This document shows, in pieces, positions 1-7,672 of a DNA stretch of 7,672 bases. The translations under genes were made by a program, and so were the position numbers. This DNA comes from a virus (taxonomy: Duplodnaviria; Heunggongvirae; Uroviricota; Caudoviricetes). Within the stretch, counting starts at the first letter, position 1. The number at the start of each line of letters is the position of its first letter. Below the pieces are notes generated by a model that made no database searches, was not told the origin of the DNA, and was given only the letters and a program-made list of their open reading frames with translations. The stretch lies in IMG/VR virus record IMGVR_UViG_2693429605_000022, positions 1-7,672 of that record; one strand, written 5' to 3'.

Positions 1-52
1 CCGTTTGGCGATATCAAATCTGATGGCACGGTGAAAACGGCTCTCGAAAACC
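1..52. repeat. Inverted repeat: nt 1-52 are the exact reverse complement of 2000-2051 (3' end of the fiber constant region), and the repeat runs off the window edge
   Basis: Direct comparison: reverse complement of GGTTTTCGAGAGCCGTTTTCACCGTGCCATCAGATTTGATATCGCCAAACGG equals nt 1-52. Confidence 0.9.
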
Positions 53-525
53 AAAAAAAAAAGACAAATTCGGCATTACCCGTTGGTGTGCCTGTTCCGT
101 GGCCTTCCGCCACTCCGCCAACGGGGTGGCTAAAATGTAACGGAGCAGTATTTTCTTCTGAAAAGTACCCAAATCTGGCAAAGGCTTACCCAACATTAAA
201 ATTACCAGATTTACGCGGTGAATTTATTCGTGGCTGGGATGATGGGCGCGGGATTGACTCTGGTCGTAACTTATTATCTGCACAGAATGATGCAATTCAG
301 AATATTGTTGGTTCTTTTGGGCGTACCCAGCTTTTTAGAGACGTACTTAGTTCAGGGCCATTTAGTCAACATGGGCAAGTATTATCTACAGGTCTAAAGG
401 AAGCCGAAATTATTGAGGGTTATGGCGCTTATAACTGGACATTCGACGCATCTCGCTCAGTTCGCACAGCATCTGAAACCCGCTCCCGTAACATCGCCTT
501 TAATTATATTGTGAGGGCTGCATGA
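1..525 (+). CDS. Phage side tail fiber protein, 3' portion only (end of the shared constant region plus variable C-terminal cassette A); the 5' part lies upstream of the window
   Basis: Frame 1 is open from nt 1 ([17 protein letters not shown]...) to TGA at 523-525. Nt 1-52 are an exact inverted copy of 2000-2051, encoding the same peptide that ends the constant part of the fiber gene at 1545-2288. The stop overlaps the start of the downstream tfa (ATGA at 522-525), a typical fiber-tfa coupling. Confidence 0.7.
   Translation, partial: PFGDIKSDGTVKTALENQKKKTNSALPVGVPVPWPSATPPTGWLKCNGAVFSSEKYPNLAKAYPTLKLPDLRGEFIRGWDDGRGIDSGRNLLSAQNDAIQNIVGSFGRTQLFRDVLSSGPFSQHGQVLSTGLKEAEIIEGYGAYNWTFDASRSVRTASETRSRNIAFNYIVRAA
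41..66. other. Constant/variable junction of cassette A at the equivalent position; a possible degenerate crossover site in inverted orientation
   Basis: CTCTCGAAAACC AA AAAAAAAAGACA shares the constant-side half-site with site 1 in inverted orientation, but the other half is an A-tract and the central dinucleotide reads AA rather than the TT expected for an inverted partner. Confidence 0.3.
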
Positions 526-1127
526 TAAGTAAAGCTGTATTAAATAATGAACTCATCGCCACAAAGGCCGGAGACATTACCGTTTATAATTATGATGGTG
601 AAACACGGGAATATATTTCCACATCAACTGAATATCTTGCTGTGGGTGTTGGTATCCCGGCATGTTCCTGTTTAGATGCTCCTGGCTCATATAAAGCTGG
701 TTATGCAATTTGCCGTTCTGCAGATTTTAACTCATGGGAATATGTGCCAGACCATCGCGGTGAAATCGTCTATAGCACCGAAACAGGAGAATCAAAAGAA
801 ATCACAGTTCCGGGTGATTACCCTGAAAATACAACCACTATCGCCCCGTTAACGTCATACGATAAATGGGATGGTGAGAAATGGGTGACCGATACTGAGG
901 CACAGCATAACGCCGCAGTAGACGCGGCAGAAGTACGGCGCCAGTCACTGATTGATGCTGCTATGGCTTCCATTAGTCTGATTCAGCTGAAATTGCAGGC
1001 CGGGCGGAAGCTGACGCAGGCAGAAACAACCCGGCTTAACGCTGTGCTGGATTACATTGACGCGGTGACTGCAACAGATACCAGCACCGCGCCGGATGTC
1101 ATCTGGCCTGAACTACCGGAGGCGTAG
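522..1127 (+). CDS. tfa: Tail fiber assembly protein (Tfa chaperone, Mu U / P2 G / e14 TfaE-like), 201 aa, cognate to cassette A
   Basis: ATG at 522 is preceded by GAGGG (513-517) and overlaps the stop of the upstream fiber cassette. The N-terminus MISKAVLNNELIATKAGDITVYNYDGETREY and the C-terminal TSTAPDVIWPELP motif are characteristic of the Tfa family. Confidence 0.85.
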   Translation: MISKAVLNNELIATKAGDITVYNYDGETREYISTSTEYLAVGVGIPACSCLDAPGSYKAGYAICRSADFNSWEYVPDHRGEIVYSTETGESKEITVPGDYPENTTTIAPLTSYDKWDGEKWVTDTEAQHNAAVDAAEVRRQSLIDAAMASISLIQLKLQAGRKLTQAETTRLNAVLDYIDAVTATDTSTAPDVIWPELPEA

Positions 1128-1542
1128 GCCATTCAATATCTGGAGCACTGGAGGTATCAACCAGTTCCAGTGCGTCCAGATAATCCAGCCATAAATTATA
1201 TTGTTCCAGCTCGTAACCTTTCAGACGACCAATAGCAGCTTTGCCAGGCCACTGATGGGTATTGATGTAGGTATTGACTTCTGAAACCAAAGATATCTTT
1301 TTCATTTCAGCCGCCAGCATCTCATCCTCTTTTGAAGGCGGCGGGGAATTAATCCATATTGGCCGTCCTGAACTGTCAGCGCCAATTTCTTTCCCTTCTG
1401 GATGCAGCCCAAGAAATTGCTCATATGTTTCTCTGGTAATTTCAATAACATCATCAGGAAGCGTTCCCGCATCCTCATATTCTGGAAACAATTCTTGCAG
1501 ATAAAAACTTTTACTTGCGGGTGAAAAGAATACTGAGTTCAT
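1099..1542 (-). CDS. tfa: Tail fiber assembly protein (Tfa), 147 aa, cognate to fiber cassette B
   Basis: ATG (1542-1540) lies 2 nt after the TAA stop of the fiber gene at 1545-1547. The C-terminal motif TSSAPDIEWPTPP is the conserved Tfa C-terminus. Its 3' end overlaps the convergent tfa at 522-1127 by 29 nt. Confidence 0.8.
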   Translation of the reverse strand: MNSVFFSPASKSFYLQELFPEYEDAGTLPDDVIEITRETYEQFLGLHPEGKEIGADSSGRPIWINSPPPSKEDEMLAAEMKKISLVSEVNTYINTHQWPGKAAIGRLKGYELEQYNLWLDYLDALELVDTSSAPDIEWPTPPVVQAR

Positions 1543-1544
1543 TC

Positions 1545-2288
1545 TTACCGTCCAATGATTAACGCTGAGACGCTGGTATCTGAAGGAAAGGCTGCATTCA
1601 GTGGTTTGTCGACTTTGAACACAATCGTATTATTCCCCCTGACAGCGGCAAAAGAACAAACCGCCGTCGCGTATGAACCTGTAATATTACTGGATACACC
1701 ACCATAAGCTGTTGTTGATACCAGAGGGATAACGCCCAGCACCTTATTAGGAAATACAAAGGGCAATGTGGCTGTGGCAATATAAGACTTATTAGAACCT
1801 GTAATGGCATAAGCATTATCAGTCATTCCATTCATCGCCACTGGACCGCTTATACTTACAGTAACCATCTGAATGATTAGCCCGTCAGGTTGACGAATCA
1901 CAAAATTTCCATTGCCACCAGTAACCGTCCAGAAAGACATATCAGGGATTTGGTTTTCCCCGTTGCCCACATTTCGTTTTGCCGCTTCTCCCAAACCAAG
2001 GTTTTCGAGAGCCGTTTTCACCGTGCCATCAGATTTGATATCGCCAAACGGATTCTTGCGGCTTAACAGCAGCGCACGAAGCGCGGTAAGCAGCTGGTCA
2101 TGCCGCCCCTTCTCCAGGCTGGCACCGGATGCCTCCACCACGCTGCAGAGTTCTTCCTGCAACATGTCAAAGTAGTCATCATCCAGATCGGTGGCAGGTG
2201 TGCCGGTCTGGGGGTTACCACGGGTAAAACCGTTCTTACCCGCGCCGAACTTATCCTTCTGCGCGGTTTTCGTGTCTATACGATGCAT
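1545..2288 (-). CDS. Phage side tail fiber protein, complete (247 aa): N-terminal constant region (~96 aa, 2288-2000) joined at a hix-like site to variable cassette B (1999-1545)
   Basis: ATG at 2288-2286 lies 3 nt downstream of the stop of the upstream tail gene. The constant part ends ...[17 protein letters not shown], identical to the window start on the other strand. The variable part begins [21 protein letters not shown], closely similar to the start of cassette C (3992-4365). The protein is Gly/Thr/Asn/Ser-rich, typical of fiber tips. Confidence 0.8.
1986..2011. other. Candidate 26-bp hix/gix-like invertase crossover site 1, inside the fiber gene at the constant/variable junction
   Basis: TTCTCCCAAACC AA GGTTTTCGAGAG has imperfect dyad symmetry around a central AA and strongly resembles recalled hixL (TTCTTGAAAACC AA GGTTTTTGATAA). 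The identity with the window-start copy ends exactly at the centre. Confidence 0.6.
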
Positions 2289-2291
2289 GGA

Positions 2292-3971
<1,680 letters not shown>

Positions 3972-3991
3972 ATAAATCACCCTGAATAAAA

Positions 3992-4365
3992 TTACTCACC
4001 AACAGCCCACCAACTGTAATGCATAGATACCGTGTCACTGGTTGATGACGTTCTGTAAGCAGAATTAAAGCCGGTTAACGTAGGGCCTTCTGCAGTCATC
4101 ACGAACCCTCGCCCAGCGCCTAAAGGCGCACCGCCATCACCAGAATGGGTAAGAATGGCGCAGTCCGCTTTTTTAGGGAAAGGGATAGGAAATGTAATCC
4201 TCATTGTTTGCGTCGATAATTTCGGCATAGCCTCGCCTCGACCATATTGCAGAATTTTACCGTTGGGTAATTTCATCCATCCATCACCACTGGCAAAAGA
4301 GGCCATGTCCGGTATCTGATTTTCCCCTGTCCCTACATCCCGTTTTGCCGCTTCTCCCAAACCAA
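3992..4365 (-). other. Silent (start-less) alternative tail fiber C-terminal cassette C, beginning at a hix-like crossover site and ending at TAA 3994-3992
   Basis: Reading the minus strand from the site gives [24 protein letters not shown]..., matching the start of cassette B in frame. About 65 nt (4300-4365) are near-identical to 1935-1999. The extra N-terminal residues in the ORF-track entry 3992..4405 are read-through of the invertase upstream region. Confidence 0.6.
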
Positions 4366-4377
4366 CGTTTATGAAAA
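4352..4377. other. Candidate hix/gix-like crossover site 3, 55 bp upstream of the invertase start and at the start of cassette C
   Basis: TTCTCCCAAACC AA CGTTTATGAAAA has a left half and core identical to site 1 and a right half resembling the hix half-site. Position next to the invertase gene mirrors gixR-gin in Mu. Confidence 0.6.
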
Positions 4378-4431
4378 TGCAGAAATAACGAGCAAATGGC
4401 ATCATTCCTGCTTTTGTCAGGGAGATCTACC

Positions 4432-4986
4432 ATGCTTATTGGCTATGTACGTGTGTCAACAAATGACCAGAACACAGATCTACAACGTAATGCGCTGAAC
4501 TGTGCAGGATGCGAGCTGATTTTTGAAGACAAGATAAGCGGTACAAAGTCCGAAAGGCCTGGACTGAAAAAACTGCTCAGGACATTATCGGCAGGTGACA
4601 CTCTGGTTGTCTGGAAGCTGGATCGGCTGGGGCGTAGTATGCGGCATCTGGTCATTCTGGTTGAGGAGTTGCGCGAACGAGGCATCAACTTTCGTAGTCT
4701 GACGGATTCAATTGATACTAGTACCCCAATGGGGCGCTTTTTCTTTCATGTGATGGGTGCCCTGGCTGAAATGGAGCGTGAACTGATTGTTGAACGAACA
4801 AAAGCTGGACTGGAAGCTGCTCGCGCACAGGGACGAATTGGTGGACGTAAGCCAAAACTAACGGATGAGCAGTGGGCGCAGGCAGGGAGACTAATCGCTG
4901 CAGGAGAAACGCGTCAGCGCGTAGCATTAATTTATGATGTAGGAGTGTCAACACTATACCGAAAATTTCCTGTAGGCAGGGATTAG
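4432..4986 (+). CDS. pin: Site-specific DNA invertase, serine recombinase of the Pin/Gin/Cin/Hin family, 184 aa
   Basis: ATG at 4432 with AGGGAG 7 nt upstream. N-terminal MLIGYVRVSTNDQ carries the catalytic serine, the central block is VVWKLDRLGRSM...GINFRSLTDSIDTSTPMGRFFFHVMGALAEMERELI, and there is a C-terminal HTH. Near-identical in pattern to recalled Gin/Pin. The ORF-track start at 4396 is a non-coding extension. Confidence 0.93.
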   Translation: MLIGYVRVSTNDQNTDLQRNALNCAGCELIFEDKISGTKSERPGLKKLLRTLSAGDTLVVWKLDRLGRSMRHLVILVEELRERGINFRSLTDSIDTSTPMGRFFFHVMGALAEMERELIVERTKAGLEAARAQGRIGGRKPKLTDEQWAQAGRLIAAGETRQRVALIYDVGVSTLYRKFPVGRD

Positions 4987-5215
4987 ACATGATGCAGGCC
5001 ACCGGTAAAGATTGATGCTGGCAGACAGCACAACTTTACAGCCCAAACTGTCGAGCTCTTGGGAACTCAGACACTAGCCATATATCGGCTCTCTTAGAGC
5101 CGGTGAACCCTCTAAATCAATTCGCCCAGAATGATATTTTTGTACTGGGCAGACCATCACAATTCGGTAATAGACAGCATCAAAGGCAGCTAAATAAACC
5201 TTAGGCTTATCCACA

Positions 5216-6724
5216 TTACATATCTGCATCAGGAGCCAGTGGGTGTCGAAGATAATGTTCCTGAAGAACATCTGCAATTGATTTCAGATTGTCTTCCTTA
5301 ACAATGGAAAGAATGTCACGTCCATTTTTCCAGTCTAATGATATTTTTGTATTTCTTTGCTTCTGATGAAGCAGCAGCTCAAGTGCTTCAGGTTCAAAAT
5401 CTGATGAGGTCCAGAATGAAAAAGTCATTTTTCGGTCACGGTACACATGAATCTGACTGTAGAATTTTCTGATGCGTTGAACTCGTTCGAGCCACTTTTC
5501 GATCATTTCGACTGAAATTAGTCGCTTAACTTCATAGCCTTTACATTCGTAGCACTTAATTTCTGCTTCGCCTCTAAAACCAATCACATCTATTTCAGCC
5601 TTACCTGCCTCGGTACTGATTTGTTTATTCAAGTCCACAGTGCTGACATTTTGGGTTTTCAGTACGATGTGACCAACTAACATTTCAAACATTACGCCTC
5701 TTATATTGATTGCGGCGCCTTCAATCCTCGTAAGTCCTTTAAATAGTTCGTTGATTTTTTCTGGGTTTGCTGCCGCAATAGCACTGGCACGATTAAGAGT
5801 ATTTAATAAACTGGACAGTAGTGCTGAAATGTCTTGACCAAGTAGGTTAGATACTGTTGTAGCCATTACACCAGCTTGTTTCGCAAGGCGAAAGGCTTCT
5901 GGATCAAAACGTTCTGCAATCAGCATAGCTAGAAACGGGCGAGTATTTCGCATATTTCTGCATCGCTGTACTTTCGTGAGATAGGTTTGGATGCTTTTGC
6001 TATCTAAATCATTGTATATGACATCTGCAACAATGAAGCCATTACTCATTTCACCTTTTTGTACTGTTGCTAAAGGCATAATATATGACGGAGCACATAT
6101 GTCCCAATGGTGATGGCTAAATGAAGGCATATTCTGAGAGTTACGGACTTGGACCTTATTAAAGCTGCCAAGGCTATTGTGTTTAATCCAGTCAGCTACA
6201 CCTTTAATGAGAATATCTTCAACCAGCAATTGGTTTCGGACATGTTGGGTATCCGTTACCCCGTTAATATTATTTATGTAAGTAACAAGACAATCCCCCA
6301 AAACGACATCAACTTCCCTACGCAGAACTGAACCTTTAAGCAATTGCGCTTCAAGACGGCTTGACGCAATGTGTCCCTTCAGTTTGTCCGGACTCCCTGA
6401 AACCTTGCTAAAAAGATATGTCGGGATCGCCCCTTGATAAGGGTGGAAAGCGAAAAAGGTGTGAGCATAGACTGTTCTTGCATTTACATGACTTTCAAGC
6501 AATGCAATCCAATATCGACGAGAGTTATAGTCCTTTGTCAGATAGAGAAATGCTTCATTTTTGGGCAAAGAAAAATGAGTAAAACGTTGAACATCACCTC
6601 CAACGCGGGAGATTCGCTGTCTGGCGTTAACTTCTGTTAGGCCATTGGCTATCAGTTTTTCTCTTAAGGCAGATGAGGACATCGGCCCGTAGATATGTAG
6701 AAGTTGTTCTATGGATGGTTTCAT
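5216..6724 (-). CDS. Hypothetical protein, 502 aa, no family recognised; cargo-position gene between invertase and ssrA; possible N-terminal wHTH-like region and C-terminal PD-(D/E)xK-like nuclease motif (tentative)
   Basis: Long uninterrupted ORF in visibly AT-rich DNA (codons rich in AAA/AAT/ATT), convergent with pin. Candidate motif EIDVIGF...(E)AEIK/CYECKGY at about residues 377-395 fits hD...(D/E)xK spacing. No obvious Shine-Dalgarno before the ATG at 6724, so the exact start is uncertain (next Met is residue 15). Confidence 0.8.
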   Translation of the reverse strand: MKPSIEQLLHIYGPMSSSALREKLIANGLTEVNARQRISRVGGDVQRFTHFSLPKNEAFLYLTKDYNSRRYWIALLESHVNARTVYAHTFFAFHPYQGAIPTYLFSKVSGSPDKLKGHIASSRLEAQLLKGSVLRREVDVVLGDCLVTYINNINGVTDTQHVRNQLLVEDILIKGVADWIKHNSLGSFNKVQVRNSQNMPSFSHHHWDICAPSYIMPLATVQKGEMSNGFIVADVIYNDLDSKSIQTYLTKVQRCRNMRNTRPFLAMLIAERFDPEAFRLAKQAGVMATTVSNLLGQDISALLSSLLNTLNRASAIAAANPEKINELFKGLTRIEGAAINIRGVMFEMLVGHIVLKTQNVSTVDLNKQISTEAGKAEIDVIGFRGEAEIKCYECKGYEVKRLISVEMIEKWLERVQRIRKFYSQIHVYRDRKMTFSFWTSSDFEPEALELLLHQKQRNTKISLDWKNGRDILSIVKEDNLKSIADVLQEHYLRHPLAPDADM

Positions 6725-7111
6725 TGAGTGTCACACTGCGCTATTTATAATATAACTACATTAGCGGATGATGAGTTCAAGATTAGTAAGGTTATGTTTT
6801 AACATATTGATAAACATGAATAAAAAATGTGTGTGATGCTTGTTTTTTCAGTGTTTGTCACAGTGCGTTTTTTAATCGATGTTTTTGTGTTAAAAACGTC
6901 CTACTTAGTTAATGTAATTGCACGTTTTATTGCGATTTTTTTTGGCCGCTTAACTTAGTTGTACTTGTTTGCTAGAGAGGTTATTTAAACCAGCTTCGCT
7001 GCCATTGGTCAAATAGGTAATGGTGTTATCTGGTATCCGAAAGTACCAATGAAGGTAAAAAGGAATTCCATCCCATAACACGAAGAGGGATAGCGTGTTG
7101 CCGCAGGTAAT

Positions 7112-7142
7112 AAAAACGAAAAAGCCCGCATTAGCGGGCTTT
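7112..7142 (-). terminator. Rho-independent terminator on the minus strand, downstream of ssrA
   Basis: Minus-strand reading gives a GC-rich hairpin AAAGCCCGC-TAAT-GCGGGCTTT followed by TTTTTCGTTTTT. It lies about 130-160 nt past the mature tmRNA 3' end and upstream of the AT-rich leader of the 502-aa gene. Confidence 0.55.
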
Positions 7143-7270
7143 CATGTCACTTGGGAGCCGCGGCTCCTTTGCGTATCCTTTTTTGTCTCCTCACCGTCTG
7201 GTCGGTGTCCTGCTGAGACTGCTAACTTCCTGTTTTTATTGGTGTTGTCCTTACACCGTCCAATCATGAT

Positions 7271-7633
7271 TGGTGGAGCTGGCGGGAGTTGAACCCGCGT
7301 CCGAAATTCCTACATCCTCGGTACTACATGCTTAGTCAGTCTTTACATTCGCTTGCCAGCTGCGGACGGACACGCCACTAACAAACTAGCCTGATTAAGT
7401 TTTAACGCTTCAACCCCAGGCAGGGCTTCCACGCGATCTCTTTTGGGTTTGACCTCTCTTGATCCCCGTCCTAAGAGCGGAGGCTAGGGAGAGAGGGCTC
7501 TAAGCAGGTTATTAAGCTGCTAAAGCGTAGTTTTCGTCGTTTGCGACTATTTTTTGCGGCTTTTTACGAGGCCAACCGCCCCTCGGCATGCACCTTGGGT
7601 TTCGCAAATCCCGTCGAATCCAGAATCAGCCCC
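7271..7633 (-). ncRNA. ssrA: tmRNA (transfer-messenger RNA, SsrA), complete 363 nt, enterobacterial type
   Basis: Minus strand reads GGGGCTGATTCTGGATTCGACGGGATTTGCGAAACCCAAGGTGCATGCC ... GGTTCAACTCCCGCCAGCTCCACCA. The tag reading frame GCAAACGACGAAAACTACGCTTTAGCAGCTTAA encodes ANDENYALAA plus stop. It matches the E. coli tmRNA as I recall it. Confidence 0.97.
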
Positions 7634-7647
7634 AATGTGTAAAGGTA

Positions 7648-7656
7648 AGTATACCA
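7648..7656 (-). promoter_or_regulatory. Probable ssrA promoter extended -10 element (TGgTATACT on the minus strand), about 8 nt upstream of the mature tmRNA 5' end; -35 region at or beyond the window edge
   Basis: Minus strand reads ...CTGGTATACTTACCTTTACACATT|GGGGCTG. Position and sequence fit a sigma70 extended -10. Confidence 0.45.
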
Positions 7657-7672
7657 GATTTATGAGCGCCAT

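Follow-up and report, generated by a model that had tools for sequence, protein, structure and literature searches.

Two single-gene nucleases that come without a methyltransferase, McrA, an HNH nuclease, and PD-T4-3, annotated as a GIY-YIG protein, are encoded directly after pinE, the invertase gene of e14-type prophages of Escherichia coli. A related logic, in which a sensor is fused to a nuclease, again without a methyltransferase and in defense contexts, is followed by winged-helix (wH) fusion enzymes such as DpnI, FcyTI, and HhiV4I and by the END nucleases. The modification-dependent fusions display the domain orders PD-(D/E)xK-wH, PUA-wH-HNH, wH-GIY-YIG, and PLD-wH, and a methyltransferase-free neighborhood has been used as a flag of such enzymes (PMC11037411). 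ZwsA (Zowangsin) of Pseudomonas aeruginosa, in turn, is a stand-alone NERD defense nuclease with the VHS-DUF647-NERD-S4 architecture and catalytic residues at positions 535-582, which is reported to cut RNA (preprint 10.64898/2026.04.06.716636). Here, we explored a 7,672-nt stretch of DNA from a tailed virus of the class Caudoviricetes (IMG/VR record IMGVR_UViG_2693429605_000022, positions 1 to 7,672), referred to below as the window, in which a gene for a 502-aa protein (5216..6724, (-) strand) lies between a serine invertase gene and ssrA, the gene for transfer-messenger RNA (tmRNA). An initial annotation, made from the sequence alone, had singled out this gene as a candidate for a novel single-gene defense or nuclease system. 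Our analysis suggests, with a probability of roughly 0.6, that the protein is a stand-alone, methyltransferase-independent defense nuclease. We infer nuclease activity, a DNA substrate, and a defense role from the fold, the conserved residues, and the genomic neighborhoods, and consider this reading probable because relatives of the gene reside on plasmids and in defense islands, about a quarter of them beside Gabija genes.

Family, architecture, and relation to known nucleases

The open reading frame (ORF) reported between the invertase gene and ssrA is present, running from an ATG start through the stop codon, which is included in the coordinates, and encoding 502 aa. It is a real gene under purifying selection, given that its full-length homologs form 92 clusters at 90% identity (word-indexed search) and that comparison with the Morganella ortholog, whose protein is 82% identical, yields a ratio of nonsynonymous to synonymous substitution rates (dN/dS) of 0.08. 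The family profile, searched against 1.84 billion representatives, matches 1243 clusters (50% identity) at E<=1e-3; 545 clusters reach E<=1e-30, nearly all of them ~500 aa long and aligned end to end, and the family spreads over many phyla. Within E. coli, the gene is found in 8 of 5426 complete genomes, always in the same pin-gene-ssrA stretch, at 99.3-99.9% nucleotide identity and with an unbroken reading frame in all 8. As originally noted, the DNA is more AT-rich than its flanks: the GC content is 40.9% in the gene (34.9% at third codon positions, GC3) and 35.3% in the 394-nt leader between the attachment-site (att) repeat and the start codon (6725..7118, (-) strand), compared with 49.1% in pin, 49.1% in the tail module, and 50.9% in the att/ssrA region. 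Low GC content, the lack of a Shine-Dalgarno sequence ahead of the gene, and the disruption of this prophage copy by an insertion sequence (IS) might be taken as signs of a decaying or non-functional ORF in AT-rich prophage-end junk. Such decay is effectively refuted by conservation, that is, by the low dN/dS, the intact frame in every E. coli carrier, and the invariance of catalytic residues across phyla.

The placement of the gene outside known families also withstood the searches. Hidden Markov models (HMMs) of Pfam, NCBIfam, PHROG, and PADLOC v2.0 gave nothing better than E=0.007 with the query, phmmer against PDB sequences returned noise only, six of the accession numbers of the protein are not mentioned in the papers searched, and all public copies of the protein are labeled 'hypothetical protein'. 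The family is thus undescribed in the searched models (including PADLOC v2.0), papers, and annotations. The only resemblance to Lamassu is a weak LmuA match (E=0.007) over the nuclease core, whereas LmuB and LmuC are absent and the slot holds no neighboring gene.

An AlphaFold model of the query, built from a 50-sequence alignment that includes members down to 24% identity (predicted local distance difference test score, pLDDT, 90.1; predicted template modeling score, pTM, 0.85), divides the protein into four domains in the order wH-wH-REase-like-REase, where REase stands for restriction endonuclease; all coordinates of the gene given here refer to the (-) strand. Residues 1-65 (6530..6724) form a predicted winged-helix domain, with the recognition helix AARQRISR carrying R40, which is invariant in 50 of the 50 aligned homologs. 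Helices 2 and 3 of this domain make up the stretch SSALREKLIANGLTEVNARQRISR, in which the initial annotation had seen a possible helix-turn-helix; this stands as a winged helix, but the model points to two such domains instead of one. The second, winged-helix-like domain (aa 66-150; 6275..6529), recognized in the model by its topology and by winged-helix structural matches of a larger query, has helices at 69-81, 85-92, 102-109, and 121-130 followed by a beta hairpin at 134-148. The middle domain (aa ~155-295; 5840..6262) is predicted to adopt a restriction-endonuclease fold without the canonical ExK, this position reading D234-V-I; D208, D234, and K251 are invariant, and E169 is conserved in 49 of 50 homologs. 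A helical linker (aa 296-334; 5723..5839), with helices 297-311 and 321-331 modeled at lower confidence (pLDDT 63-82), leads to the C-terminal domain (aa 335-502; 5216..5722), which displays the alpha-beta-beta-beta-alpha-beta core fold of the PD-(D/E)xK superfamily with the E...(P)D...(D/E)xK motif in the right secondary-structure elements: E347 in alpha1, D379 in beta2, and E393-C394-K395 in beta3. The triad D379/E393/K395, picked out beforehand from the spacing of the motif, proves to be right because D379 and E393 are invariant and position 395 is occupied only by K (43/50) or R (7/50); E347 is retained in 49/50. Nearly all signature residues persist in plasmid-borne members at 24-29% identity. 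The structure prediction that had been proposed as a check therefore recovers the expected nuclease fold, along with the middle nuclease-fold domain that the initial annotation had missed. When the middle and C-terminal domains are compared with hhalign, they fall in register over alpha2-beta4-alpha3 (P=0.0023), which suggests that the two arose by internal duplication.

Taken together, the modeled fold and the residues provide good support for assigning the protein to the Mrr/NERD/Card1 branch of the PD-(D/E)xK superfamily, and weak matches among family members are to NERD, Mrr_cat, DUF234, and CARF_PDDEXK. Mrr is a protein of ~300 aa; the 502-aa protein is larger and differs further by its pair of winged-helix domains and its additional nuclease-fold domain in the middle. 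In agreement with the earlier remark that no Mrr or Mcr signature is recognizable, the query has no match to Mrr_cat (PF04471) at E<=1; 3 of 50 members match this model (best E 2.5e-6), and none of the 50 matches Mrr_N, the N-terminus being a winged helix by structure only. The query does not match NERD (PF08378), to which 5 of 50 members show weak matches (best E 1.5e-4). ZwsA shares with our protein the single-gene organization and a NERD-type E/D/ExK center of nearly identical spacing but is set apart by its description, its architecture differing from wH-wH-REase-REase. McrA and PD-T4-3 have folds unrelated to that of the 502-aa protein and are analogous cargo, not homologs. Unlike the type IIS enzymes FokI and N.BspD6I and two-catalytic-domain monomers such as Mva1269I, to which there is no sequence-level relationship, the 502-aa gene has no nearby methyltransferase, and its recognition helix is conserved across the family and not diversified. 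Classical type II and IIS restriction-modification (R-M) systems differ by their cognate methyltransferase, for which there is no gene between pin and att. The winged-helix fusions and END nucleases have other domain orders and nuclease types, and no sequence match to them was seen; moreover, the winged-helix fusion enzymes read Dam-type N6-methyladenine (6mA) and would be self-toxic in Dam+ E. coli. Identity with END nucleases was considered and rejected, given that END consists of a PLD nuclease and an inactive EndoIII (PLD-iEndoIII) (PMC12191111), a different architecture.

The nuclease domain is also similar to those of Card1, Can2, Cdn1, and Cap4: the family profile sets its E...D...ECK motif (E...EIDV...ECK) against Card1, and the PADLOC CARF_PDDEXK models match 5 of 50 members, albeit weakly. 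By structure, these signal-activated suicide effectors, along with NucC and Avs, are among the closest nuclease domains, so that the 502-aa protein could be conceived of as an abortive-infection-type effector, in which the nuclease is restrained by the middle or winged-helix domains until a phage cue releases it for indiscriminate degradation, maybe of RNA. ZwsA, whose E-32-D-13/14-ExK spacing is the same as here, is reported to cut RNA-phage genomes (preprint 10.64898/2026.04.06.716636), and the conserved element upstream of our gene, described below, suggests tight expression control, as would befit an effector of this kind. However, the protein contains no known signaling-type sensor domain (CARF or SAVED), with winged-helix and restriction-endonuclease folds in its place, and neither a cyclase nor another signal generator is encoded nearby. 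Furthermore, multicopy ColE1-type plasmids tolerate the gene as their sole cargo, which would be more readily expected of a benign, target-restricted enzyme than of an abortive effector. We regard abortive infection as a rather unlikely mode of action. A CARF-like middle domain, suggested by long Foldseek alignments to Card1, was discarded, since the isolated domain has the restriction-endonuclease fold.

Defense neighborhoods and the Gabija association

A scan of one genome per species with a 17-sequence alignment yielded 119 loci from many phyla, and in 87 of these, the neighboring ORFs were called and clustered within 6 kb. Only two neighbors recur strongly, an ATPase of the AAA_15 type and a helicase resembling UvrD, and PADLOC recognizes them as full-length GajA and GajB (E down to 1e-274, five sub-model pairs). 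One or both directly adjoin the family gene in 22 of the 87 loci, with both present in 16 (L025, L030, L032, L034, L037, L041, L045, L049, L057, L063, L070, L074, L076, L078, L082, and L084) and one of the two in L039, L042, L047, L079, L085, and L097. The arrangements vary and include GajA>GajB>X and X>GajA>GajB, where X is the family gene, as well as divergent and convergent orders, and the Gabija-linked loci are scattered over ~12 lineages of the family tree. The pairing recurs on an enterobacterial F-type plasmid, pAF18_1, where GajA and GajB lie beside the family member (L100 5672-7234 and 4665-5687). Gabija is present in ~15% of genomes (PMC10781630), and because it is no more frequent than this, the observed adjacency lies far above chance, by a rough estimate hundreds of times. 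The linkage is absent from the entire clade of the E. coli gene, and neither GajA nor GajB is found in the window or in the sister prophage L001. The original statement that the gene has no partner holds at this locus, where the interval from pin to the att repeat is free of partner genes, but a quarter of the relatives adjoin Gabija. A universal partner gene was sought and rejected: neighbor clustering shows none, and the genes downstream of the Morganella and Tn7-like family members are unrelated to each other.

Given this association, the 502-aa protein might be a Gabija companion, whether as its third component or as a module that acts in synergy with it, with the E. coli copy detached and acting alone or together with Gabija encoded elsewhere in the host. 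The frequency of the adjacency, its varied gene orders, the ~12 lineages, the at least 5 GajA/GajB sub-models involved, and the recurrence on the F-type plasmid all speak for an association of this kind. Nevertheless, about three quarters of the family, including the E. coli clade and the members on tiny plasmids with no other cargo, have no Gabija neighbor, and mere co-localization in defense islands would give rise to Gabija adjacency just as well. Canonical Gabija consists of two genes; the designation of our gene as 'GajC', a known third Gabija gene, was rejected because this name has been published only for a MazF-like protein, unrelated to ours, which takes the place of GajA (PMC13069673). 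A functional tie to Gabija appears quite improbable to us, and the reading as a stand-alone defense nuclease is retained.

In the remaining loci, strong matches among the immediate neighbors are to prokaryotic Argonaute (pAgo), IetS, HEC-06, PDC-S24, SduA (Shedu), DruE (Druantia), Dsr1, and AbiEi, with type II and IIG restriction genes also in immediate proximity, and the adjoining genes also include integrases, ArdA, ArdC, and coupling proteins of type IV secretion systems. Among the 87 loci, no methyltransferase family was found to recur within 6 kb, the exception being 3 loci that contain a full type I system. The examination of homologous neighborhoods, which the initial annotation had put forward as a check on a defense role, accordingly finds the homologs overwhelmingly on mobile elements and beside known defense genes.

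Mobile carriage, the upstream element, and the prophage slot

The carriers of the family are highly diverse. The Morganella relative (82% identity) is part of a lambda-like prophage, between a tail fiber gene and int; the Salmonella relative (86%) belongs to an integrative element resembling integrative and conjugative elements (ICEs), with ArdC, integrases, and UmuDC; and the Pantoea relative (60%) is encoded on a plasmid. Of the distant members, one opens the cargo of a Tn7-like transposon, near Wadjet, one sits in an ICE between a type I R-M system, which it follows immediately, and ardA, and yet another is a moron of a different prophage. Full-length members at 24-60% identity are carried by 357 PLSDB plasmids (Klebsiella 187, Escherichia 85, Salmonella 26), and most of the plasmid members examined retain all signature residues; the distant ones are named 'NERD domain-containing protein' by the Prokaryotic Genome Annotation Pipeline (PGAP). 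In ColE1-type plasmids of 3.3-4.7 kb, the family gene is the only sizeable cargo; examples from Klebsiella, Salmonella, and E. coli include pKP121-4 (L098, 4685 bp) and pGY1 (L103, 3592 bp). That the 502-aa gene is a self-contained, mobile, single-gene cassette is well supported by these observations.

The cassette includes a short upstream sequence. A conserved 5' element of ~35 nt, GTAGTTATATTATAAATAGCGCAGTGTGACA (6729..6767, (-) strand), which stops 4 nt before the ATG, was detected solely through comparison of orthologous upstream regions. It is 87-94% identical upstream of the Morganella and Pantoea orthologs, which sit in different mobile elements, and in these is more conserved than the protein itself, only 60% identical in the case of Pantoea; in the Salmonella leader, the match is weaker, at 70% over 164 nt. 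Downstream, the flanks of these orthologs have nothing in common. Judging from sequence conservation, the element probably serves as core promoter and/or operator, and it may represent an autoregulated promoter with a nearly leaderless transcript. A simple promoter scan of the coding strand found no consensus sigma-70 site. Inside it, in the gene's own promoter region, is the palindrome TTATATTATAA.

A palindrome in this position, the very different carrier elements, and the status of sole cargo on small plasmids could also be expected of a gene that serves the mobile element itself, whether through maintenance or addiction, exclusion, recombination or repair in the manner of NucS/EndoMS or a resolvase, or transcriptional regulation by the winged helix. 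The structural matches of the query include NucS/EndoMS and an excision-controlling factor, and one source names a homolog a Holliday-junction-resolvase-like endonuclease. Yet a conserved antitoxin or partner never adjoins the family gene, which occupies cargo slots rather than replication or recombination modules; its distribution is patchy, as in E. coli, where carriers are so few, and its most frequent neighbors are known defense genes. Service to the element is, in our estimate, about as improbable as a functional tie to Gabija, and defense by a self-contained nuclease remains the preferred explanation.

The E. coli gene itself sits in a well-delimited position. The last phage gene before it is pin (4396..4986, (+) strand), a pin-type serine invertase gene (Pfam Resolvase, 1e-51, and HTH_7) that is annotated from ~4432 in sister genomes and is named pinE in the sister prophage L001. 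On the other side lies ssrA (7271..7633, (-) strand; ARAGORN and RefSeq annotation), the integration target. The boundary of the element is marked by an att-type direct repeat (7119..7302), 92% identical over 185 bp to a stretch at the opposite (int) end of this prophage in E. coli TUM11352 (L012 8009-8192). This repeat is made up of the 3' end of ssrA and ~150 bp downstream of it, including an intrinsic terminator (7143-7120, (-) strand), and 4264 E. coli genomes have it as part of the native DNA around ssrA. Because the 185-bp direct repeat bounds the element, the 502-aa gene is inside it, between pin and att. TUM11352 carries these 3.3 kb in collinear order and at 99.2% identity to the window; its complete prophage, an e14/SfV-type myovirus that has a Mu-type baseplate and is integrated at ssrA, ends with the 502-aa gene.

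The same slot holds other defense genes in sister prophages, bearing out the suggestion that the interval from pin to att is a prophage-end defense cargo slot. In e14 of E. coli K-12, pinE is followed by mcrA; in an O157-type strain, by PD-T4-3; and in strain Sx181-0-1, by a GIY-YIG gene that corresponds to PD-T4-3 (E=2.4e-140) and then by an OLD/GajA/AriA-like ATPase-nuclease. The slot occupants in these prophages span L014 4649-7833, L015 4649-5422, and L013 4698-5531. The tmRNA locus, moreover, is a recognized defense-island hotspot of E. coli (PMC10121019). Matches of pin in P2-like phages were set aside as evidence on the slot because pin is internal to those genomes. With McrA, PD-T4-3 plus the OLD-like protein, and the 502-aa gene as its occupants, the post-pin slot of e14/SfV-type prophages constitutes a small defense hotspot that can be mined.

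Several further observations were made on these elements. Compared with the intact sister prophage L001, the window is inverted at 1938-2855 and 499-1254, so that the tail-fiber module (1-4350) is rearranged, and a partial IS3-family element (orfA 2888-3235; truncated orfB 3355-3837) lies at the rearrangement junction; pin, the 502-aa gene, and att are still collinear and intact. On account of the tail-fiber inversions and the IS3-family element, this prophage copy is probably defective, its cargo having been kept. In TUM11352, the region from the att repeat to int (L012 8345-10215) encodes hypothetical proteins of 303 and 199 aa and a 108-aa protein with a STAS-like domain, and these three int-proximal genes may be a second cargo or defense module. 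In the IncI/IncF plasmids examined (E. coli W pRK1; Klebsiella IncFII), the family gene (~26% identity) is followed by a DUF4238 gene of 375 aa and then by a 96-aa ORF, a conserved array whose layout is also present in pAF18_1, where the 375-aa gene is annotated as hypothetical; the array occupies L101 7034-10006, L102 6965-10005, and L100 8001-11053. A DUF4238 protein has been shown to protect against T7 (PMC9122126). At L010 7249-11521, an islet composed of ParA, three small ORFs, and the family gene breaks a peptide ATP-binding cassette (ABC) transporter operon. The mad3/mad8 PADLOC matches of the ATPase beside P0047 at this islet reflect generic ABC similarity within the interrupted operon, and a MADS system was accordingly rejected.

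Proposed mode of action and implications

In the scenario that we consider probable, the 502-aa protein would be a ~57 kDa endonuclease that protects the lysogen, and hence the prophage, from infecting phages or foreign DNA of other kinds. At the N-terminus, the pair of winged-helix domains would bind nucleic acid; the conservation of their recognition helix, with R40, throughout the family suggests that they read one shared ligand, for instance a modified base or a structural feature of DNA, instead of having diversified sequence specificity. The two covalently linked restriction-endonuclease-fold domains could act as a built-in pseudo-dimer, in which the C-terminal domain (E347, D379, E393-x-K395) would provide the catalytic center, whereas the middle domain would either cut the other strand with a second, non-canonical active site or serve, as an inactivated copy, in DNA binding or regulation. 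The gene would move between elements as a self-contained cassette that brings along a conserved promoter-proximal element of its own. The data are better explained by a sensor of modification or structure than by a type II-like enzyme of diversified specificity, which is disfavored by the lack of a methyltransferase and by a recognition helix that is conserved throughout the family. As to how self is spared, dependence on modification in the manner of type IV enzymes is our preferred guess, though a tentative and, on balance, doubtful one.

Several points weigh against a stand-alone defense nuclease. E. coli hosts are assumed to have Dam and Dcm, in which case a modification-dependent enzyme cannot target Dam/Dcm methylation. 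K395 is replaced by R in 7 of 50 members, and no PADLOC v2.0 or Pfam model recognizes the query. The evidence from neighborhoods is guilt by association. The family has no member among the 50,697 sequenced phages in INPHARED and is found in only 3 contigs of IMG/VR, so that prophage carriage is the exception for this family. Finally, PD-(D/E)xK/NERD domains can cut RNA, as has been reported for ZwsA (preprint 10.64898/2026.04.06.716636).

A more far-reaching version, which we consider somewhat unlikely, is that the family represents a new form of methyltransferase-independent, restriction-like immunity, with two winged-helix readers, two distinct active sites, a possibly autoregulated cassette, and co-operation with Gabija. 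Such co-operation would explain why around a quarter of the family, in ~12 independent lineages, lies beside GajA/GajB.

A solitary nuclease gene as cargo is a familiar theme; what is new is the architecture, the size of the family, and the link to Gabija, that is, the adjacency of GajA/GajB to 22 of 87 relatives. If the defense role is true, this would be a widespread and unannotated single-gene system, comprising at least 545 clusters at 50% identity and carried by 357 PLSDB plasmids, and its carriage by Klebsiella and E. coli plasmids could matter for phage therapy and plasmid transfer. The recurrent pairing with Gabija can be tested directly, as a case in which Gabija either has a three-part variant or acts in synergy with another defense system. 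More generally, the tandem nuclease folds combined with a conserved winged-helix reader could reveal a new, methyltransferase-free means of discriminating between self and foreign nucleic acid.

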